Source: Mobula hypostoma (Eukaryota). Taken from it: a stretch of 64,000 nt of DNA. The stretch covers positions 93,436,001 through 93,500,000 of the forward strand of contig NC_086097.1 of assembly GCF_963921235.1 (NCBI RefSeq). The letters are read 5' to 3'. Below the pieces are notes generated by a model. The model ran no database searches. It was not told the origin of the DNA and worked only from the letters and a program-made list of their open reading frames with translations. The translations under genes were made by a program, and so were the position numbers. Of this stretch, positions 10,891 through 53,589 are shown one piece after another; the stretch's first letter is position 1; each line of letters starts with the position of its first letter.

Positions 10891-10960
10891 ACTATATATT
10901 TTGACCATATTTTATTTTCAGTGTGCATTGTACTTTATTCTTTTTTTTATTCCTCTCCAG

Positions 10961-12059
10961 CATCTTGAAATGTCTCCCTAATATTTATTCAACATCGCCT
11001 GAAGACCATGAAGAGCCTTTTAATATTATTGTCAAGGAAGAACCTCCAGATGACTATGAGTACAATTGTGCAGCAAACTCAGTGGACCTTGATTGTGGTG
11101 AACTAAAATGTAAAGAGGAGGAGGAATATTTAGAACCAGAGGAACAGCATGACAAGACTAATTGTGAATTAATTAATAAAACTATTGACAAAAATGAAGA
11201 GGATGCAACTTCACCTGCAGTTAGTAAGCCGCCATTGAAAATTCCGACAGAAGTAGCACCTAAAGCTAAAATGCGGCAAAGCATTAAAGTGCCTGTAGTT
11301 TACTTGGAACCATGTATTATTACAAAAGGTACCATAAAAGTATCTGAAATACCACAGAAGCTGTTGTCTCCTTGTCGGAGGAGTGGAGGGCCTCTGCCTA
11401 CCGTTGTCCATTCTCCAGTGTCAGCAGAAAAACGTACTTGCTCACCGAGCTCTGCTGAGAAACCTGAAATGGAGAATGTGGACTCAACATCAGAATGCTC
11501 AAAGCGCAAAGAGAGAAGCCCTGCGTCAGAAAGGACTGAAAATAAACCCCACATCTCTACGGATGAAAATATTCCAACTGCTTCACATAGTACACTCTTT
11601 GGGAAGTCGTCTGGAGAAGGCTTCAGATTTCGTAAGATTAAATATACTGAAAAAGCACTGAATTCCACCCTTTGGATGCCTTTAAGCAGACCGTATCTTA
11701 ATTCTACTGAGAATTCTCCTGTGTTATCCAATTGCTTTAAGTCTGCACGTTTGTCTAGTAAGGCATTCAGTTCTGGGATCTGGAGACCTCCAGATGGTAG
11801 GACTTGCTCTACAGGGGGGACCTCTGTGCCTCGCACCAATTGCAAATCTTCACCTATGTCGGCACAACAAGCCATAGCGGGTGCTTGCAGACGAAGACGG
11901 ACAAAAAAGCTGCGGCTGTCTGCGAAATCTTCCCATTCTGTCTTGGGAATGAGTTCTTTGGCATCCTCTAAACATCTGGAACGGGAAAAAACATTTCAAG
12001 ATGCCAGTCCCGATCTGGATGATGTGGAAGGTGTTACCTTTGTGTCATATGCATCTCAG
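10961..12059 (+). CDS. MGA: MGA-family coding exon (post-T-box exon), phase 2 in, phase 0 out
   Basis: Polypyrimidine tract ending tcctctccag at 10960; long open frame (ORF 10923..12236) containing IIVKEEPPDDYEY and ending DLDDVEGVTFVSYASQ, like MGA DLDDVDGVLFVSFESK; donor cag|gtgaga at 12060. Confidence 0.92.
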
Positions 12060-12475
12060 GTGAGACCATTTGTGTTAGGGTGTGTAATTCATTTAATATT
12101 TGGTTTTGAGATTTCTCTAAAAAAGGAATCCTGTTCTAAACTAAAGCATTGTAATAAAACTATGACTACATTCAGATTATTAGGCCTTATGAAAAAAAGT
12201 GTGAAAATGTGCTTAGGAATTCATAACTTAAAATAGAGAAGACTGTCAGTAATGAACTAGGTTATTTTGTAATGGAACATGTTTAAATTACAAAACTTTG
12301 AAGAAGTTATTGAACCCAAGGAATCATTAAAAACTAAGGGATGTGAGCTTCCCTAATGCATAGATTTTTTTTTACTTCTATTGAACCAGTGTGAAGCAGA
12401 TGCATACCTAACCAGAAGCTTGGTATACATGAGCCCTGCTAAAGAAATTGAGACAAAGCTGCTAATTTAACATAA

Positions 12476-13848
12476 ACCAGCCAGACACCCAGATCCCATT
12501 GTACTTCCCCTTTTCCTAACTTGACACCATTCAGATAGTAATCTGCCTTCCTGTTCTTGCCACCAAAGTGGATAACCTCACATTTATCCACATTAAGCTG
12601 CATCTGCCCACTCACCCAACCTGTCTAAGTCACCCTGTATTCTCATAACATCGTCCTCACATTTCACACTGTCACCCAGCTTTGTGTCATCTGCAAATTT
12701 GCAAATGTTACTTTTAATCCCTTCATCTAAATCATTAATGTATATTATAAATAGCTGCGGTCCCAGCACCGAGCCTTGCAGTACCCCACTAGTCACTGCC
12801 TGCCATTCTGATAAGGACCCGTTAATCCCTACTCTTTGTTTCCTGTCTGCCAACCAATTTTCTATCCATGTTAGTACCCTACCCCCAATACCATGTGCTC
12901 TAATTTTGCCCACTAACTTCCTATGTGGGACCTTATCAAAGGCTTTCTGAAAGTCCAGGTACACTACATCCACTGGCTTTCCCATGTCCATTTTCATAGT
13001 TACATCCTCAAAAAATTCCAGAAGGTTAGTCAAGCATGATTTCCCCTTCGTAAATCCATGCTGACTCGGACCTATCCTGCTACTGCTATCCAAATATGCC
13101 GATATTTCATCTTTTATAATTGACTCCAGCATCTTTCTTAAAAAGTGGGATAACATTAGCGACCCTCCAATCCACAGGAACTGATCCTGAATCTATAGAA
13201 CATTGAAAAATGATTACCAATGTGTCCACAGTTTCTAGAGCCACCTCCTTAAGTACCCTGGGACGCAGACCATCAGGCCCTGGGGATATATCACCCTTCA
13301 GTCCCATCAGTTTACCCAACACCATTTTCTACCTAATGCGAAGTTCCTTCAGTTCCTCCGTTACCCTAGGTCCTCTGGCCACTATTACATCTGGGAGATA
13401 GTTTGTGTCTTCCCTAGTGAAGACAGATCCAAAGTGCCTGTTCAGCTCGTCTGCCATTTCCTTGTTTCCCATAATAATTTCACCCGTTTCCGTCTTCAAG
13501 GGCCCAACTTTGGTCTTAACTAATTTTTTCCTCTTCATATACCTAAAGAAGTTTTTACTATCCTCCTTTATATTCTTGGCTAGCTTACCTTCGTACCTCA
13601 TCTTTTCCCCCCGTATTGCTGTTTTAGTTATCTTCTGTTGCTCCTTAAAAGTCTCCCAATCCTCTGGCTTCCCGCTCATCCTTGCTATTCTATATTTCCT
13701 CTCTTTTATTTTTATACTGTCCTTGACTTCCCTTATCATCCACGGTTGCCCCTTACTCCCCTTAGAATCTTTCTTCCTCTTTGGAATGAACTGATCTTGC
13801 ACCTTCTGTATTATTCCCAGAAATACCTGCCATTGTTGTTCCAATGTT
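12476..13848 (-). mobile_element. Young CR1 LINE internal fragment (RT plus upstream linker)
   Basis: ORFs 12593..13156 (QHGFTKGKSC, YLDFQKAFDKVPH, GVLQGSVLGP, KFADDTK), 13107..13325 and 13329..13859. Confidence 0.95.
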
Positions 13849-22065: not shown

Positions 22066-22121
22066 TTCCCTCTCTATAATCATGGTCATTGATATCACTA
22101 TGCTTCCATTTTTTTAAGCAG

Positions 22122-22229
22122 ATCCTCAAGAAACTGAAGAAGAGAAAATTCAACGGCTGGAAGAGCAGCTGCTTAAGAACCTGTCTCATTTAAATCCCAG
22201 AGTTATTATGCATCCATTACTTGAACAAG
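22122..22229 (+). CDS. MGA: MGA-family coding exon, 108 nt
   Basis: tttttaagcag acceptor; DPQETEEEKIQRLEEQLLKNLSHLNPRVIMHPLLEQ resembles MGA RISQLEKELIEDLKTLRHKQVIHPGLQE; donor g|gtgagt; missed by the ORF track. Confidence 0.9.
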
Positions 22230-22449
22230 GTGAGTGTTTAATGTTACAAGGTTTGTTCGAATATGCTAATTTGTGAAAAAATTTAAAGATGTATCAAAGT
22301 GGTCTGATGAATTCAAATTTGTTAATTCCACTTTTATGGTCATTTTTCAAGCTGCAGTGTTTTTATGCAGAATGTAAAATGTGTGTCATAGCCTGATTGG
22401 TGTGTTCATTGTAAACCTCCTTATTAACTACACGTACTCTCTTCCACAG

Positions 22450-22599
22450 CTGGTCTTAAGCCAAGTTCCTTGCTGTCAACAGGCAGTCTGAACCTAAAAC
22501 ACTTAGGAGTGGTAATATCACCCTCAGCATCAATTGTTAGAACTGCTCAGAGAGACATCTTAAAACCTTCTCCAATCAGAGAAGTTCGTGATCCTTTAG
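22450..22599 (+). CDS. MGA: MGA-family coding exon, 150 nt
   Basis: cttccacag acceptor; GLKPSSLLSTGSLNLKHLGVVISP resembles MGA GLKLNSVDPTMSIDLKYLGVQLP; donor g|gtgagc. Confidence 0.9.
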
Positions 22600-24485
22600 G
22601 TGAGCAAACAAGCGCTTCAATGAGAAGTTTATGTCAATGCATGAAAGCAAGTTTGTCAACATGGAAGTTAGGGACCACGATCAAATGGACCATTTCTATA
22701 GATAATATTTCCCAAAGATAGTTACAAAATTAAATTTATATTTTTTCTGAAGAGTGTGATTCTAGTTTATAGATTAAATTGAAACAAACTTGTTTCTGAG
22801 ACTAAAAATTGAATGGGTGACAGAAATTTTAGAATAAATGAGAAGTTAAAGAGCAAGCTCTATTTAATCTATATTTGAGTTTTGTGTCAAATGATAACAG
22901 TAATTTTGAAACTGAGATAAGAAATTTTAAAAAAAACAAACATTACAATTTGTTTAATAAGATTTGATAATAAAGCTGGCCTTTTTTTATTTTAATGTAT
23001 AAGCTATAACCAAATAAATTTTTTAACAATCAAGCCAAAAAAAAGTCTTCTGTTGACTGAAACAGTGCTATTTCCCTACGTTATCCACTCAGAGATTCCA
23101 ATTCTTGACTAGAAATTGGATTGCTTGCTCTCAGTCTTTAGTGTTCCAAAGTGATGCCCAGGGCCTTGACGCATACATGGACAGCCCGACTTTCCACTAT
23201 CACACTCTTGTCTTGATTACTTCAACATGCTATTTAAAGAAGTAACCATATATGTAAAGATTAGATGCTGGTAGATTTCTTCGAGTGTTTTCAAGTTAAG
23301 TAAGTTTAGGCAGAGTGATAGAGGTGAAGGGCCTTTATACTGATGTCTCTCATGTGAATTGATTTGCACTTGGACAAGTATTTTTAACTGGGGTTCTCTT
23401 TGGAAAATGAAGTGTCAGGAATAATAGTCAAAAGGCAAAAAAAACTGGATAAATAATTTGAATAGGGAAGAGGAAAGGGTTATTCCCCTGTCTGGACTAT
23501 AGAAAAAAATTCTTTGTGGGATGTCCACTTATAATAAAGCCATGATTGCAAATGCAGAGCCAGGTATGTACCAACTGCCACTGATCCCCATAACAATGAG
23601 TTTTTATGCCATGGGATCCAGATAAGTTTTCAGTGTCTAATTTACTGCTCTGTTTTGAGCTGTCATCAGCTTGGGATTCCTATGCTTAAGTGGGAATTTT
23701 CAAAAGAGTTTTTGAGAGCAATTTTGAGTCTTTTCTTCTGCCCACCTGGTAATGATTTTTTGAAGTTTGGAGATCTGTTCACTGTCCTTAACAATGTTAA
23801 TTGTGCATCAGCTGTCCTTGTGTATATTTTCAAAGACTGGTTATTTTACACCTGTTAATAAAATATTGAACTGATGCAAAGACCTTTGGAGTAGTGCAAC
23901 AGTCACTGGAGTTGGTCATTTTCTGAATTTGAGTTGTAGGTGTCCAAGGTATGATCTCCCACACAAGTTGTTTGATTGCTTTAATGTACTCAAAATTTAC
24001 TGTTTTTATTATTTTCTTCAGGTAGAGATCTCTAGCATATCTAATCAGAAAGAATCAATCCCCTTTGATCTCATTGTTCCTGTGTTTTTTTGCCTTCCCT
24101 TCAGTTCCTTTAAGAGATCAATAATCCTGAAAGCTAACCATTCTTAGTTCATCTCCAGTAATAAACAAGTATTCTATATTTTGCTTGCCTTGCTCAGATA
24201 AATTCTGTTTCTTCAAAGGAGTGCAAAAGAATTGTATCTCTTCAGCCACATTTTCAGGAAGAATATGCTTCTCTCAGAACTGCTTGGCTTAACAGCAGTT
24301 GTTCTAAACCAGGGTTTTAAATAGGTAGTATATTATTTTGCCATAAAGCTTTAGTTTTAAACATTACATTTCCCTGTCTTTTAGTTTTATGGGTCATTAT
24401 TACTGCTGCACAATTTTAATAATTGAAATTGTTGTCCAATTCCAGTAAATCTTTAACTTTATTTAAATATGTGAATATTCTGCAG

Positions 24486-25665: not shown

Positions 25666-25811
25666 TTCAGTAGGCATGGTAAAGAACTGCATACTTGCCA
25701 TAATTTGTTGGGACGAATTGAGTTTAAGTAGTATACTTCAATTGATGAATGTTTGTCTGGACAATGCAATAACCAATGAACTGATGATTAATGTTTTGGG
25801 GTCTCTTCCAG

Positions 25812-26371
25812 GCACCAATTTAGAGGCATCCATGAAAAATCGTTCTGTTTTCTCAAGTGACAAATTGGATGAATATCTAGAAAATGAGGAGAAAATTATT
25901 AAAGAGCGTGCTGCTCTGTGTATGAACAAAACATCAAAAGTTGTTTATGAAATGCCTACCAAAAGTTCCAGTTACATCCGCACATTGGATAGTGTTTTAA
26001 AACACCAGACAACGCAAGCCAACACTAGAGAGTCCTCCTCATCCAGTCGAACTTCAGTTTCTCCACAGTCCGTTCCTGCTGGCTCTGTTTCCAAAAGCAA
26101 GAAGCAGAGTGGGATGATCATAGAACATGACTCGGCCAGTAAGGAGCAGAGGTCTGTAAACGTGGCAAAAGTAGCCTCAACACCAGCTAAATCACCGGCT
26201 AAAAGCTCCCGTTTGCGGTTCTCCTCTGCATCCAGGAGACTTCCTGGTATATCTAAAAAACAGATGAAGTTGATGCATCTGGAGAATAGTGCCCTCTGGT
26301 CTGGGAAGCCAAGGACTTACATTACAGAGGAGCGAGCAGAGGCATCCCTTGTTACTCTGTTAACAGCACAG
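25812..26371 (+). CDS. MGA: MGA-family coding exon
   Basis: ctcttccag acceptor; motifs KNRSVFSSDKLDEYLENE, VYEMPTKSSSYIRTLDSVLK and GKPRTYITEERAEASLVTLLTAQ; donor cag|gtattg. Confidence 0.95.
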
Positions 26372-27196
26372 GTATTGATTTTTCTCTTACATTGAAGAAA
26401 AAGTGAGGAAAGTTTGTTACTGAAGTTCTTGGAGAATGCAAATCTCAAATAAATTGACTCCATCAGTTGACAACTGTAGTACATTTTTCTGGTGACTGTA
26501 GATCAGGTAATGTTTATTTGGGACATAAGGAGACAGTGCAAACATAACATGTGGGAGGAGGATTAAGCTGTAAGTCTCTCATTTTGGATTCATTAACTTG
26601 GAGTCTGATCTGATTTTTGCCCTCTCCTATACTTTCCTGTCTTATATTTCTCATTTCCCTTGTAGTCTGTATCAGCCTTGAATTAAGTTTAATGCTGCTG
26701 CGTCCATAGCCCTCTAGTGTATAGAACTGCAGACTTGTAAGGGAACAGATTACTCTTCACCTCAAACTGAAATAACATTTCAGATGCCATCTGAAAATCC
26801 AAATATTATACAGTATGTGTTTATTAATTTCCCTTTACACATCCATGCTACATAGAACAGTAGAGCAGAGTATGGACCCTTTGGCTCATGACATTGTGTC
26901 AGTATAAATCAATCTACTTCATGATCAATCTAACCCTCCACACCTGCACAGCACATAACTCTCTAGTTTATTTTACATTCATGTGCCTAACTGTCAGTAC
27001 TATTGTATCAGCCTCTATGACCACCTCTGCATTGTGCTACAGGCACCCACTACTCTGTGTAAAACAAAAAAAACTCCTTCCTCTGGCATCTCCCCGAAAC
27101 TTACCTCCGCTCACCTTAAACACATATCTTTTAGTGTTGGCCATTGCTTTCCTGGAAAAAAAGTGCTAGCTATCCCTCTATCTATACTCCTTGTAT

Positions 27197-27356
27197 GGGG
27201 TGTCAGGGAGGGGTAGCACCTCTGCTGGGGGAACATGTGGCATCCTTTCCCCACCTGACACTTAGCTCTCACCTGTGGCTCCCCGTAGCTGTTTGCATGC
27301 GACAGCGGCCACACTCCAGGCAATGGCTTCGACAAGCCAGCTAAACCAGGTGAGGG
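27197..27356 (+). ncRNA. Predicted HDV-like (nested double pseudoknot) self-cleaving ribozyme
   Basis: P1 GGGGUGU(27197-203)/ACACUCC(27311-17); P2 CUCUCACCUG(27266-75)/CAGGUGAGGG(27347-56); P3 GGC/GCC; L3 begins UCCCCG; AG-GCAAU then P4 GGCU-UCGACA-AGCC; J4/2 AG-C(27341)-UAAA. Confidence 0.8.
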
Positions 27357-27721
27357 TAGCTGACAGGTTTCAAACCCTCGGTGAGATAGGGAGTTGTCTA
27401 TCCTAGCATGTGAAGACAGACTCCGGTGGATTGAGCAGATGAGACCAATGGAAGGTTCAACAGTCAAGAAGGCGGTCTCTGCAAGCGTCGTGGACCGTGT
27501 AGAGCAGGACAAGACACAGAAAACGTCCTGGTCATCCACTGCGCCTAGTCCCATCTCCAGCTGTCTCGATTCTGTCTTGCCACAGGATCCAGATGGGAAT
27601 TGGGAACAGAGAGTGAGGCTGACGCTGCTCAGTTCTCCCTCACTTAAATCCAAATCACGCGCTAGTATCAACACCATCATAATGATGTCAAGGTCCTCAT
27701 CGACGTCGATGATGGACACAC
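27197..27721 (+). mobile_element. Non-autonomous ribozyme-headed retroelement (SINE/SIDE-like) inserted in a CR1 fragment
   Basis: Interrupts a minus-strand CR1; degenerate TSD actccttgta (27186-95) / accccttata (27722-31); short (CA)n tail; starts at ribozyme G1. Confidence 0.7.
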
Positions 27722-29719
27722 ACCCCTTATAATCTTATACACCTCTATCAATTGCCTCTCGCCCTCTGTCAATCCAAAGATTTGGATTGACTCAGGCATA
27801 CTTCAGAAGGCATGTCCTCTAATCCAGGCAGCATCCTTGTAAATTTGAATCTTCTTTGATGCTTTCACATCCTTCCTATAATGAGATGACACAATATTGT
27901 AAGCGTGGTCTAACCAGAGTTTTATAAAGCTGCAACATTACTTTGCATCTCTTGAACTCAGACCCCAACTAATGAGAGCCAACACACCTTTTGCCTTATT
28001 AACCACCCTATTACCCTTGTGCTGCAACTTTGAGTGATCTATAGACATGGACCCAAATATACCTCTGTTTGTCCACACTGCTAAGAATCTTGCCCTTTTC
28101 CTTGTACTCTGCCTTCAAGTTAAATCTTCCAAAGTTTATCACTTCCCACTTTTCCAAATTGATTTCCATCTGCCACTACTCCACTCAAATCTTCTTCTTG
28201 TATATGTCCTATTGTAACCCATAGCAACTATCCACAACAACTCTACGCCTTCACTTCCTCATCCAAGTCCACAAAGAGCACGGGCCCCAGAACAGATTCC
28301 TGAGGAACACCACTGGTCAGCAGCCTCCGGGCAAATAGTTTCCATCTGTTACCACCCTCTGCCAATTCCAAATCTAGGCAGACAAGTTCCCATGATTCCA
28401 TGCCTGAAAGGTGTTAAAAACAATTTTACTTTCCTGAAACCATGTTGACTGTGCTTGATTGTCCTATTTTTTTTCTTTATTTCCCCTTCAACGATGGATT
28501 CCAGCAGTTTTCCTATAAGCTTAAAGTTCCGTGGTTTTTGCCTCTCTCCTTTCTTGAAATGTGGTACCTTGGCCTACAGAATCCAGGGGATTTTGATGGA
28601 TTATACCCATTGTTTTTTCAGCCACTTTAAGTTGCAGGATGTAGGCCACTAGTTCCTTGGAATTTGTCCATCTTGAGCCCATGGTTTGCTCAATACTTTA
28701 TCCCTAATAGTAGAAATTGATATAACTCCTCTTTCTGTCTGCTCATCTACCATTTTATTTATTTAATCTGCTTTCCTAGTTCACCACCCAATTCTCTTCT
28801 TTAATCATTGTAAGTGGGTTTATTTAACACTGGAACACAGGGACATTTTTATTTATTAAATATGGAGACCAAAACACTGTTAGGTACTCCAGGCCCACAT
28901 GCACCCAGGAGAATTGCATCAATGTTTTCCTGCTTTTATAGCCTTTTGCAACAAACTCTTACTGTGTCTAAGGTTATCAGATTGCTTCACCAAGAGCAGA
29001 CAGAAAGCTTTGCCTCAATCACCACTGCAAACTCTGCTCTACTATGGCAGTCATTGAGAATTACCAGAGGGAGAACCAGATCCTTTGCAGTCTCTCATTT
29101 TATCTGATTTTGAGGTGAACTTTCAACAAGGTATTGATGGCAGATGTAAGTCTGCTGTTTCAATCTCTGCAATATTGCTTTACTACTATAAGTATATTGT
29201 TAAAATACCCCAGCCTTATTATTATTTTCAGAATCTTCACTATTCCAATGGCCAGCTTCCTGAGTTCAATCCTCCATAAACATGAGACCATCAAAACTTT
29301 TACTGGTAGGGTTGTTTTCTGACCTGTGATAATTTCCTCTCCCTATAATTCCAAATTCCTCCATGACATGTAGCTCTCTGGGAAAACTGTGCTTATCCAT
29401 TTCTGGCTATGTGAAAATCCCCAAGTTAAGTTGGCTTTGGATACCAAGCTATGAACTCCAGAATTACTTGCTAAATCTCTCCATCTCCCCATGTCTTTTG
29501 CCTCCTTTAAACAGCTTCTTAAATCCTTTCTGATAAATTTTAATTGCCATACTAACATTTCTTGAATGATGTAATATTTTATATGTATATGTGTGTGTAT
29601 CACTCACTCACTCTTGAGGAGCACCTTGGGATGTTTTGCAATGATGAAAGTATCATTGGTTCATACTCTGAATGCCAAGTTTCTGTGTAAAGCTTGTTTT
29701 GCATGCTGTTTATATAATG

Positions 29720-36666: not shown

Positions 36667-38411
36667 TTTTTTTTTCAATCTTTTTATTAGTTTCAGCATC
36701 ATATACATTTCAGAAAAATAGATACAGAGAAATCGGGATTACATTATTGAAAAGATAGTTTGTACAAATATAACCTCAATTGACACATAATTCATGAGCC
36801 TCCCAAAATCTCAAAAAGTACAGCTCTAATATAGGGAAATATAAGGTAAAAATGGAAAAAATATCATGAAAAAAGAGTAAAAAAAAATTTCCCCCAAAAA
36901 AGAAAAAAAATCTAAACCAGCTAAAGAAAAACTAAACTAACGAAAAGAAAAAGAATGGGCTATTATGATACCTCAGATAAGACCATTAGTGTTGTTAACT
37001 CCGCTCCTCTCCCCCTATATAGAATAACAAAGTAGAATTGGAAAGGATCAAATTTCATCATATGAAAGTATTGAATAAATGGTTTCCAAATCTCTTCAAA
37101 TTTAATAGAAGGGTCGTAAATGACGCTTCTAATTTTTTTCTAAATTTAAACAAGACATAGTCTGCGAAAACCATTGAAATGTAGTAGGAGGATTAATCTC
37201 TTTCCAATTCAATAGTATGGATCTTCTAGCCATTAGTGTAACAAAAGCAATCATCCAACAAGCTCAGATGATGTTGTTCTATCATTGGTAAACCAAAGAT
37301 TGCAGTAATAGGATGGGGTTGTAAATCAATATTCAAAACAGTTGAAATAATCCCAAAGATATCGTCCCAGTATTTCTTCAGCAAAGGGCATGACCAAAAC
37401 ATGTGAGTTAACAAAGCTGTATCAGAATAACATCTGTCACATACAGGATTTATATGAGAGTAATAGCGAGCTAATTTATCCTTGGACATATGAGCTCTCT
37501 GTATTACTTTAAACTGTATCAACGTGTGTTTAGCACATATAGAAGAAGAATTAACTAATTGAAGAATTTTTTGCCATTTCTCATAAGGTAAAGTAAGCTT
37601 AAGTTCCCTTTCCCAGTTGTTCGTGATTGAATTCGATACATCTGGATTTATTTTCATAATCATATTATAAATAATTGCTATTGCACCTTTCTGAAAAGGA
37701 TTTAAAACTAAAATTCTTTCCATTATATCCGATGAGTATGAAATCAGAAAGGTAGTAAGAACAGTATTTAAAAAGTTTCTAATCTGTAAGTATCTAAAGA
37801 AATGGGATCTAAGTAAATTATATTTATTAGATAATTGTTCAAAAGACATGAAACCATTATCTAAAACTAAATCAGAAAATCATATTATACCTTTAGTTTT
37901 CCAGACTAGATGGGCTTGATCCAAAAAAGAGGGTTGAAAAAGAAAATTTAATTAGAATAGGGCTTGTTAAAATAAATTGATTCAGTCCAAAAAATTTGAA
38001 ACTGAAACCATATTCAAAGAGTATATTTAACTATTGGGTTATCCATATGTTTGTTCACCTTAGAAAAATCAAAAGGAAGCTTAAGACCCTAAAATAGAAC
38101 CTAATGAAAACCCTGAAACGGATTTACATTCAAGATTAACCCATTGTGGACTTGAAACTGTATCCCAATTCCATGTCCAAAATTTTAAGTAACGAATATT
38201 AATTGCCCAATAATAAAATCTAAAGTTCGGCAATGCTAAACTGCTCTCCTTTTTGGGCTTCTGTAAGTATCTTTTACCTAGTCTAGGATTTTTACTCTGC
38301 CATATATATGAAGAAATTTTTGAATCAGCATTATCAAAAAAGGATTTCGGAATAAAGATGGGCAATGTTTGAAATAAATATAAAAACTTGGGTAAAATCA
38401 TCATCTTCATG
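36667..38411 (-). mobile_element. 5'-truncated LINE-1 clade element
   Basis: ORF2 C-terminus KMMILPKFLYLFQTLP and zinc knuckle CDRC...HMFWSCP; aataaa plus poly(A), seen as poly-T at 36667; short TSD gcagat. Confidence 0.9.
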
Positions 38412-46118: not shown

Positions 46119-46756
46119 AATTAGATCCTGAGAAAATGGATGATTTGGAGGACAGTTCAACATCACCAAATGGTGTTCAGATGTGCAAATGGAAGACAAA
46201 GGAGAAGACAGATTCACCTTTACCCTGTAACAGTCCTCAAGGAGAAAGTTCCAGCTTTCATCCAAAAGAGCCACCATCATCAGCGCAGATAAAAAATACA
46301 TCCAAACTCATTGAGATTATTTCAGATTGTAACTGGGAATCCGAACGCACAAATATTCTTGAAGTTCTTGCTCGATATACTGCTAATAAGGGAATTTCGG
46401 AGAAAATACGAATTGGCAATTTCCTTGTTGAAATTGCATCAAATCGTGGAAAAGGTCTAGATGGTCCACCTGGAAGTACACACATTTCTAGTTCCATAGT
46501 AAAGATTACTCAGCCTGCTGATAAAGAGGAGGATGCCAAAACCTCGGGTTGCAATATATCTGTTCAAACTGCTTCCAAATCTTCTGGACTGAAGCAGTCT
46601 GACCCACGACCAATTGCACCAAAAGAAAAGTTACGAATACCTGCCAACAGTATTTTGGGGAGCAAGGAGATAACCATAATTCAATTAGGCTCGACAGTGG
46701 CTAGGCTGCAGAAGGCTGCTTCTGATTCAACTGCTCGGAAAAATGGTTTGATGCAG
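46119..46756 (+). CDS. MGA: MGA-family coding exon
   Basis: ttgtctag acceptor; KLIEIISDCNWESERTNIL, IRIGNFLVEIAS, ending GLMQ; donor cag|gtatgt. Confidence 0.93.
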
Positions 46757-47454: not shown

Positions 47455-47710
47455 TTTACCAGAAATACCAGTGGTGATACAAAGCTGACACTAGGACAGG
47501 TTGGAGCTCTTCATCCAGTGAATTGGGTGATTTCTAACCTCAAAAAGAATGTAAAGTCAGCTGATCCAGTCAGATGGTTCACTTCTAGTATGGCTGCCTC
47601 ATCAATCTCTGCTGATTTACCCTCAAAACACGTGACTACTTGTTCTACAGACCCTGCCAGTGAAGTTTCAAGAGATGCCAGTAATGCTGTGCCTTTTGAC
47701 CAGGCCAAAG
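47455..47710 (+). CDS. MGA: MGA-family coding exon
   Basis: ttttgattag acceptor; TKLTLGQVGALHPVN resembles the AKLLLGQMGALHPAN segment of long MGA isoforms; donor g|gtaagg. Confidence 0.88.
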
Positions 47711-48622
47711 GTAAGGTTAGCTTGGCAAAATTTTTTGTACTAATAAAATATTTTTGAGCAAGAAATCTTAGCAGTAATAATCTTCAGTTCTTGCTTCAGA
47801 TGTTAACATGTGGTAGATGGCTCAGAGTACTGAAAACAACTCAATGCCAACCAAGCTGTTAAGATTTAGTGGTAGTGGAATGATCTATGATTTCATTTGT
47901 TAGCCAACACTTTAATTTAACCCACAGTTGGGAAGAAAATTCTTGGGATGAAGTATGGCTAGGACTTATTAAAAGCTGGAGTTGTTTGTTTGGAACTTGT
48001 TGGATTTGTGGCATCTGAATTTTTTATACCAAGAAGTGATTTCCTTTCTGATTCATTGAAGAGTTAAACAGTGTAGATCATAATGCTTCTAGTTGTGATC
48101 TTGGTTGGTATAGTACAGCTCCGCCTTGTCCACGGAGAGAGAAAAGGTAGTGTTCTCTTAAATGCATTGCACTAGATATGTAACAGGAGAATGTGTTTTA
48201 TTGGAGTATTTCCTGGAAAGCCAGTTAGCAAGATGCAATTTGTTGGCTTTGTTTCTGCCCAGAAGCCAGTTAACTTCACAGGATGCTGTGGGATGGCCAG
48301 CTATAGCATGCCAAACATGAAAACTGGCAACCTGCAGGGAAAAATTCGGCCTTTCAGGACAATAGGTTTGAAACAGGTGGTAGTCAAGAGGAAGCTATGG
48401 GGGCACTTAAGGGTTTGCAGGATGGGCTTAAGCTGGGCTTGTAGCCGGCAACAGTCAGTTGAAATGATTGATGAAAAGAATATGAATGTTTTGTTGAGGG
48501 GCTGTGGGGGGCATTTCTTGTGCTTTACAAGGAGTATTTCAAAGAAGGTATTCTCCTGCCTGGTCTCCATTTCACTGTCTGTTAATGAATGTTTGAATCT
48601 CTGAATAATGGTGCCACTCATC

Positions 48623-53292: not shown

Positions 53293-53589
53293 GGTTATCT
53301 AAACATCCTGAAACATCCAACTCTACCCCTGATTTGCCTAAAGCTACAAAAACTGAAGGATCGCAGCTCATTTCGTTACCAGTGCAGTCTGGCCTTCCTG
53401 TCCGGCCTGTCCAGAACCTGCAGCTCACACCTGGGCAGAAGGTGATACTGCAGCCCCTCAGATATCCAGTTGGGAAACTCTTCCAACACCCAAATGGCCA
53501 GATTATCCAACTTGTACCTTTGGCAAATTCTGGTACAGTAAGTCAACCAAATCTCCACCAAATGATCACACTTGCTGTACGGAATCCAG
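53293..53589 (+). CDS. MGA: MGA-family coding exon
   Basis: atgacag acceptor; ILQPLRYPVGKLFQHPNGQIIQLVPL...RNPG resembles MGA VLQPVRSPSGMNLFRHPNGQIVQLLPL...RNPG; donor g|gtgagt. Confidence 0.93.

Follow-up and report, generated by a model that had tools for sequence, protein, structure and literature searches.

The 64,000-nt stretch of the Mobula hypostoma genome analysed here (contig NC_086097.1, positions 93,436,001 to 93,500,000, forward strand; hereafter the window) carries at 27192-27726 (+) an old, mutated copy of a non-autonomous retroposon that lacks long terminal repeats (non-LTR), which is ~530-560 nt long in full, is here shortened by 4 nt at its 5' end and belongs to a family headed by a predicted ribozyme like that of the hepatitis delta virus (HDV). 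The copy lies in the sense orientation in a ~19.7-kb intron of an MGA-like gene. An earlier note, made from the letters of this DNA, had described an HDV-like ribozyme with a hairpin in L3 at 27197-27356 and had taken it for a member of a ribozyme variant family. At the level of the family this view is supported, as the majority sequence of the family fits the sequence and pairing rules of HDV-like ribozymes better than the window copy does. On balance, the sequences lead us to lean towards the reading that the intact copies are an active, so far undescribed delta-type subclass, in which L3 is an internal loop that ends in an additional helix and the strand at the cut site occurs twice, and that they provide hundreds of sites for the co-transcriptional cutting of pre-mRNA.

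The repeat nature of the site is evident from a DNA search of the 3.48-Gb assembly, which returned 1805 first-look candidates; 40 of them were scored, and nearly all start at positions corresponding to 27192-27197. The segment common to the window copy and 29 others runs from 27192 to about 27717-27725, and the similarity to each of these 29 begins at 27192-27208. A 31-nt word from J1/2 has 3065 matches in the genome at ≤2 mismatches (none for its reversed control), and a 33-nt word from the 3' end has 1697 (control, none). A single-copy or dedicated intronic ribozyme is ruled out by this number of dispersed genomic matches (at least 3065). Exact target-site duplications (TSDs) of 8-22 nt are present in 50 copies, and a set of 30 copies selected by their tails consists of 21 full-length elements and 9 elements truncated from the 5' side at scattered points. 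The 3' end (27660-27726 (+)) contains two adjacent hairpins, which are decayed in the window copy, where ...GAUGGAC ends at 27717. The intact 3' end of another copy (L064) folds as a double hairpin with a z-score of -3.78, and none of 200 shuffled sequences was as stable. The tail of the window copy after 27717 is degenerate (ACACACCCC); other copies have GAAC(AAC)n at this place. Taken together, the TSDs, the 5' truncations, the 3' hairpins and the (AAC)n tail argue for retroposition of a non-autonomous element mediated by a long interspersed nuclear element (LINE). The window copy is ~87% identical to a near-majority copy, and the only candidate for its own TSD is a match of 8 nt (CCTCTATC) that does not directly adjoin either end but lies at some distance from each.

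A classical short interspersed element (SINE) with an RNA polymerase III small-RNA head was considered and rejected. No tRNA-like head was detected by ARAGORN (0 genes in 3 loci), and no small-RNA family matched the first 200 nt beyond a chance-level match to mir-593 (E 4.7).

When the sequence was re-read, every element of the HDV fold that had been claimed for 27197-27356 was found to be present (all on the (+) strand). The copy opens with UGUAU (27192-27196), the remnant of a first unit that reads GGGGUGUAU in the family and that we take as the true 5' strand of P1. Its four G's are missing here; according to the alignment, GGGGTGTAT precedes the second unit in most copies. The second tandem unit, GGGGUGU (27197-27203), is the 5' strand of P1 in the earlier note. 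A structured J1/2 follows (27204-27265), which by alignment and fold is ~25 nt shorter than in most copies owing to a deletion. P2 is formed by CUCUCACCUG (27266-27275) and CAGGUGAGGG (27347-27356), the latter placed by sequence, alignment and covariance model, with 10/10 pairs including one G.U. P3, seen in sequence and alignment, comprises GGC (27277-27279) and GCC (27308-27310), with 3/3 pairs. The 5' part of L3, UCCCCG-UA (27280-27287), contains the equivalents of the U.G reverse wobble (U27280 and G27285) and, in sequence and alignment, the partners of P1.1 (C27281 and C27282). It is followed by the extra stem-loop (27288-27306), whose arms GCUGU (27288-27292) and ACAGC (27302-27306) form 5/5 pairs around the 9-nt loop UUGCAUGCG and are in effect an extension of P3. 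The 3' strand of P1, ACACUCC (27311-27317; ACACCCC in the family majority), makes seven pairs with GGGGUGU, one of them G.U. Next come AG (27318-27319) for the 3' strand of P1.1, where the majority has GG, and GCAA (27320-27323) for J1.1/4, which is UACA in the sister family described below. The P4 hairpin listed in the earlier note exists at 27324-27339, yet an outline longer than GGCU/AGCC describes it better: alignment and pair count give UGGCUU, loop CGAC and AAGCCA, i.e. six pairs (27324-27329 with 27334-27339). U27324 thus pairs with A27339, and two CpG transitions happen to have preserved this pair. J4/2 is GCUAAAC (27340-27346), with the putative catalytic C at 27341; a weak alignment to the Rfam model RF02682 sets GGCUAA in the same register. 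The pair count also bears out that A27318 leaves the window copy with one of the two P1.1 pairs.

A loose HDV descriptor, written after the site had been seen and run on both strands of the window, hit this locus and no other. The same site was the only one found in the window when a covariance model was used (121.4 bits, E 2e-28), which had been built for the family core from 55 sequences with the window copy among them. Could the resemblance to the HDV fold have arisen by chance? Weak versions of the motif do arise, as the loose descriptor had a single match when the window was shuffled 60 times with its dinucleotide content preserved. Nevertheless, the 10-bp P2, the 7-bp P1 and the GG-GCAAC motif of the majority, their conservation in two families and the coincidence of P1 with the element's 5' end make a chance origin extremely improbable.

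The alignment of 55 copies of the family (family A) has a mean column identity of 97%. Its core consists of P2, U, GGC, UCCCCG-UA, the hairpin, G, GCC, ACACCCC, GG, GCAA, CGGCUU-CGAC-AAGCCG, GCUAAAC and P2'. The earlier note had explained the departures from consensus at A27318, U27324 and A27339 as CpG decay, and the majority of the 55 copies indeed has G, C and G at these places. The counts are G 44 and A 11 in column 53 (27318), C 29 and T 24 in column 59 (27324), and G 43 and A 11 in column 74 (27339). The family is also present in contigs of four organisms, in which 83-98% of the depth at column 53 is G. The public runs found, 24 in all, consist of assembled Logan contigs, mostly labelled as RNA by guess, which do not show RNA ends. 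The majority sequence reads ACACCCC-GG-GCAAC, followed by a 6-bp P4 and GGCUAAAC. Among 77 copies sampled with a bias towards good preservation, 34 retain every feature that was checked.

A published descriptor of HDV-like ribozymes fixes G1-Y, the two C-G pairs of P1.1, the U..CG of L3 and the C of J4/2 (PMC6326823), and the family A majority has all of these. The elements of the nested double pseudoknot follow one another in the expected order from P1 through P2', as judged by direct reading and by the descriptor scan. P1 obeys the rule as well: GGGGUGU stands opposite ACACCCC, the first pair is G1-C, and P1' directly follows P3'. As to P1.1, 54 of the 55 family A copies have C-G at pair 16-54 and 42 of 55 have it at pair 17-53; the window copy has one pair only. 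The G of L3 has been stressed as critical (PMC3774820). Both family A and the window copy have UCCCCG in L3, and UCCAAG of the sister family (family B) keeps the U, the CC and the G. The C of J4/2 (column 76) is invariant in all 43 rows of the joint alignment of families A and B.

Family B was found as a variant in contigs of four organisms that were aligned to a near-majority copy, and its 24-nt motif has 467 genomic matches (control, 0). We read 32 of its copies, columns 53-76 of which were fixed by the search pattern. Family B is older, ~560 nt long and has a related tail (GAUGGACAACCACCAC); both tandem units and the L3 helix are present. The majorities of the two families differ at 9 of 92 core positions. 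These are columns 18-19 in L3 (CC to AA), one base of the hairpin loop (column 35, C to U), J1.1/4 (GCA to UAC) and P4 (G60-C73 to C60-G73, and A70 to G). Inside J1/2, 16 of 40 positions differ. P1', P2, P3, P1.1 and J4/2 (GGCUAAAC) are unchanged, and the L3 hairpin differs between the majorities in column 35 only, with scattered changes in single B copies. In the joint alignment, 94.2% of the cells at paired positions are paired; sliding the partners by 1-3 columns lowers this share to 25-51%. At pair 60-73, family A has G-C and family B has C-G, with 13 distinct rows showing the former and 17 the latter.

The 5' ends of the copies suggest a correction of the cut-site strand. The strand designated as P1 by the earlier note is the second of two tandem GGGGUGU units, and the copies start at the first. 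Tandem units (GGGGUGUAU-GGGGUGUCAGG) occur in 29 of 30 loci chosen regardless of their 5' ends. Of the 50 TSD-defined copies, 34 start at -3 to +2 nt relative to the first G of unit 1; four more start at +4, which is ambiguous because the target ends in G's. Only one of the 50 (L075) starts at unit 2, 1 nt upstream of it, as does, exactly, a copy outside that set (L018). From the TSD-defined 5' ends it follows that the retroposon RNA begins, as a rule, with the upstream GGGGUGU. The 7 nt that come after P3' (ACACCCC) are fully complementary to this GGGGUGU of unit 1. In HDV-like ribozymes it is the relation of P1 to P1' that sets the cut site; the distance between the two strands may range from 23 to over 700 nt, and for R2 the duplication of P1 sites has been discussed (PMC3774820). 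A few copies carry an extra unit, partial or whole. A third GGGGTGTAT unit, again whole or partial, is seen at the 5' ends of some copies (L009, L050), which would fit slippage of the reverse transcriptase on the doubled unit.

Folds of minimum free energy (MFE), computed for the window copy and for three natural copies over 195 nt, agree in that unit 2 (GGGUGUCAGG) pairs with CCUGGCACUC at the 3' end of J1/2. In the window copy this basal stem is 27198-27207 with 27254-27263 (+), and the same stem appears in the three full-length copies. In the latter, a J1/2 domain of ~92 nt is closed at about -44 kcal/mol, and unit 1 is single-stranded. For the window copy, the predicted duplex energies are -14.8 kcal/mol for the 10-bp J1/2 stem versus -8.8 for P1. 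The basal stem changes between the families in a compatible manner: in the author's reading, U.G becomes U-A, and A-U becomes C-G with a bulged A. The thermodynamic prediction, the census of 5' ends and these stem changes together suggest that unit 1 would be the true P1 and unit 2 the basal helix of the J1/2 domain.

Several observations speak against the ribozyme reading of the family. The L3 loop carries a 22-nt insertion, so that 28 nt, including the 5-bp helix with its 9-nt loop, separate P3 from P3', and L3 is not a short closed loop. The L3 of HDV itself is ~7-8 nt long. No precedent for a helix in L3 was found among the matches listed in the available literature on HDV-like ribozymes. 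J4/2 is C-U-A-A, whereas the descriptor has C-R-R-A (note that the consensus of RF02682 also has CUAA), and family B has A in L3 where the descriptor fixes C. The scan of the window with Rfam gave no match at the gathering score, and no HDV-type Rfam match was obtained at E ≤10 either in 26900-27700 or in six near-majority loci; the ribozyme of one copy (L008), taken alone, scores 13.2 bits with RF02682 (E 3.5), versus a gathering score of 44. By the measure of Rfam this speaks against membership, and it is at the same time to be expected of models unable to span a 90-nt J1/2 together with a 22-nt insertion in L3. Covariation is thin: between the families there is one clear compensatory event (pair 60-73 in P4), and within family A there is no association between columns 59 and 74 (Fisher p 0.31), so that the variation within family A looks like independent CpG decay. 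As P1, P2, P3 and the L3 hairpin are invariant between A and B, they are conserved, which is not proof of their pairing, and the search pattern itself imposed part of the agreement in family B. A GGGGUAUAU subfamily (8 of 60 copies) has an A.C mismatch in the P1 formed by unit 1 and still starts at unit 1. Finally, a defined 5' end could also stem from a transcription start.

The last point leads to the rival view that the likeness of the family to an HDV ribozyme is superficial, catalysis having been abolished by the insertion in L3 or by the other departures, and that the 5' end is a transcription start set by an internal promoter in the conserved first ~40 nt. The missing Rfam match at threshold, the missing L3 precedent and the thin covariation would all suit it. 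The first 40 nt are the same in A and B apart from one inserted C, as would be expected of a promoter too, and L1Tc joins promoter and ribozyme within its first 77 nt. We nevertheless consider this view unlikely. It leaves aside that the seven nucleotides at the 5' terminus are fully complementary to those following P3', in a core that keeps all fixed HDV positions, and that the changes between A and B avoid the helices and the catalytic positions. There is also no tRNA-like head in the 3 loci given to ARAGORN, nor any small-RNA match other than mir-593. We therefore retain the reading of an HDV-like ribozyme at the head of the family. Note that the first ~40 nt comprise unit 1, unit 2 and a hairpin (GGAGGGGUAGCACCUCU); by analogy with Pr77 of L1Tc, this region could serve a second role, e.g. 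as a promoter or a protein-binding site.

What does this mean for the MGA-like gene? The sense orientation claimed by the earlier note was confirmed by tblastn exons, which place the copy (+) within an intron of a + strand gene. A 443-aa frame at 10905-12236 (+) matches the skate 'MAX gene-associated protein-like' (E 9e-89, 57% identity), in agreement with the cartilaginous fish that the earlier note had inferred. With the skate protein as query, tblastn located MGA-like exons (+) at 10962-11675, 22118-22628, 25811-26371, 46121-46675, 47455-47733 and 53295-53588, with 54-69% identity. The exons flanking the copy end at ~26371 and start at ~46121, which gives the intron of ~19.7 kb. The exon at 53295-53588 aligns also to a second part of the protein (residues 170-265).

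The earlier note had further suggested that the window copy itself could cut MGA pre-mRNA between 27196 and 27197 by means of its P1. The copy is in sense to the gene and has all pairs of P1 (7/7), P2 (10/10), P3 (3/3) and P4 (6/6) as well as C27341, and the starts of the two copies L018 and L075 imply that unit 2 may sometimes act as P1. Against this, unit 1, at which 34 of 50 copies start, is missing; a P1.1 pair is lost with A27318; the remaining P1 strand is predicted to lie in the 10-bp stem (-14.8 versus -8.8 kcal/mol); and the copy has a 25-nt deletion in J1/2 at an identity of ~87% to a near-majority copy. An active window copy is for these reasons very unlikely. Lacking the GGGG of unit 1, with its sole P1 strand sequestered and a single P1.1 pair, the window copy is, according to the predicted fold, most likely inactive, and cleavage of the MGA pre-mRNA at 27196/27197 is unlikely. 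The effect on the MGA intron is expected to be small, as the copy is degraded.

According to the list of open reading frames (ORFs), the body of the retroposon contains a frame that is open to the 3' end (27385-27732 (+)); translations of other copies run from MEGPTVKK to MDEQQQ. It has ~95 codons from the ATG and 21 open codons upstream, contains no stop before (AAC)n and is open in many copies. Judging from its sequence, it may be the remnant of a LINE ORF. A search of representative proteins with this ORF gave 12 matches of 58-335 aa, all of them short and fragment-like, and a search restricted to longer proteins gave one unrelated-looking match of 205 aa. An autonomous LINE partner was not encountered among the loci, flanks and proteins searched. 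None of 60 loci selected by the ribozyme or 30 selected by the tail exceeds ~560 nt; all of these 90 loci (87 distinct copies) contain elements that are either short or truncated from the 5' side. Nothing is shared by the sequences upstream of six of the truncated copies, and the ORFs adjoining one further copy (L073) include no reverse transcriptase upstream of it. In the introns of the window, Pfam analysis of ten ORFs yielded only reverse-transcriptase fragments, located elsewhere than the copy: RVT_1 at 12593-13192 (-) (E 5e-23) and zf-RVT at 37226-37879 (-) (E 2e-5, below the Pfam cut-off).

Two further observations concern individual copies. In 5 of 60 copies (L017, L022, L029, L040, L045) the last ~50 nt are replaced at the same point. 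Three of them (L017, L022, L029) continue into tRNA-like SINE sequence (GCTGGCTGGTGGCGCAGTGAC...GAGTTCGAATCC), with no tRNA called by ARAGORN in L017; in L040 and L045 the break was located at the same point by BLAST. The exchanged 3' module makes these five copies look like a chimeric subfamily. Two other copies, L050 (59833017 +) and L051 (59838080 -), lie 5 kb apart in opposite orientation and have identical 5' flanks; the element was thus already in place when this locus underwent an inverted duplication.

We propose that a self-cleaving ribozyme of the HDV-like (delta) type is formed by the initial ~195 nt of the family. It would be composed, from the 5' end, of P1 from unit 1, a 2-nt linker and the closed ~92-nt J1/2 domain based on unit 2. 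These would be followed by P2, by P3, by an L3 that keeps U, CC and G and is extended into the extra helix, and then by P3', P1', GG for P1.1, P4, GGCUAAAC with the catalytic C, and P2'. The element would be transcribed inside a longer RNA, e.g. a host pre-mRNA, and the ribozyme would cut immediately 5' of the first G, thereby creating the defined 5' end of the retroposon RNA. A LINE reverse transcriptase would then recognise the (AAC)n tail together with the pair of 3' hairpins, so that the RNA would be copied into new sites by target-primed reverse transcription.

Non-LTR elements, among them R2, RTE and L1Tc/NARTc, are established carriers of HDV-like ribozymes that process their 5' ends, and non-autonomous derivatives that keep the 5' ribozyme of a LINE are known, such as bipartite non-autonomous LINEs, which share both their 5' and their 3' end with an autonomous LINE (PMC3774820, PMC5786205). 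Like the R2, RTE and L1Tc/NARTc ribozymes, the predicted ribozyme is the first module of the element, and genomic copies begin where P1 predicts the cut. Variable junctions with extra nucleotides or microhomology, as observed here, are described for those R2 elements whose ribozyme cuts at the element's own 5' end, and ribozymes of this set share with the present family a long J1/2 and a duplicated P1 with two possible cut sites (PMC3774820). What distinguishes the present family from this set is its cartilaginous-fish-like vertebrate host, its thousands of dispersed copies, the extra helix in L3, the conservation of both tandem P1 units in two families and the lack of an autonomous partner in our locus, flank and protein searches.

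Large J1/2 domains that 'pinch' P1 and P2 together have been described as activating HDV-like ribozymes (Webb et al. 2016, PMC4908430). There, the domain is likewise closed, with a basal helix that brings P1 and P2 together; the domain predicted here measures 92 nt and -44 kcal/mol. Unlike in that study, the basal stem here contains the second copy of the P1 strand, and the same 7-mer could compete for P1'. The mammalian CPEB3 ribozyme is also intronic and in sense, and in both cases a co-transcriptional cut of the pre-mRNA is possible in principle. CPEB3, however, is a single conserved locus, whereas the window copy belongs to a repeat with at least 3065 matches, is in decay and differs at key positions from the other members of its family. 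RF02682 (the Faecalibacterium prausnitzii HDV ribozyme) has the 3' half in register (GGCAACGG, P4, CCGGCUAA, J4/2 C-U-A-A); the 5' half and the L3 helix are unmatched, and the score is 13.2 bits versus 44 (E 3.5).

In the open full-text literature on HDV-like ribozymes together with sharks, elasmobranchs or SINEs, we found no report of this family; subscription journals are outside this scope. By its sequence, the family is to be regarded as a probable structural variant of the HDV-like ribozymes that head non-LTR retrotransposons. The literature consulted deals with elements of invertebrates and protists; for vertebrates it covers R2, which inserts site-specifically, and CPEB3, which is a single locus. 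This known range would be widened by a family that is dispersed in thousands of copies through a vertebrate genome.

If the proposed reading is true, one copy of the cut-site strand serves as P1 while its duplicate provides the base of a J1/2 domain of the 'pinching' kind, and the tolerance of the delta active site could be gauged from the conserved L3 helix and the doubled P1 strand. It is because of these two features that descriptor and Rfam searches miss such ribozymes, and standard HDV descriptors and Rfam models would overlook all of them. With thousands of copies in the genome and about four in ten intact in the biased sample, many intact ones would lie in introns in the sense orientation. 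If these cleave, the sense intronic insertions would be a genome-wide source of pre-mRNA cleavage, either as a cost to the host or as a regulatory resource.

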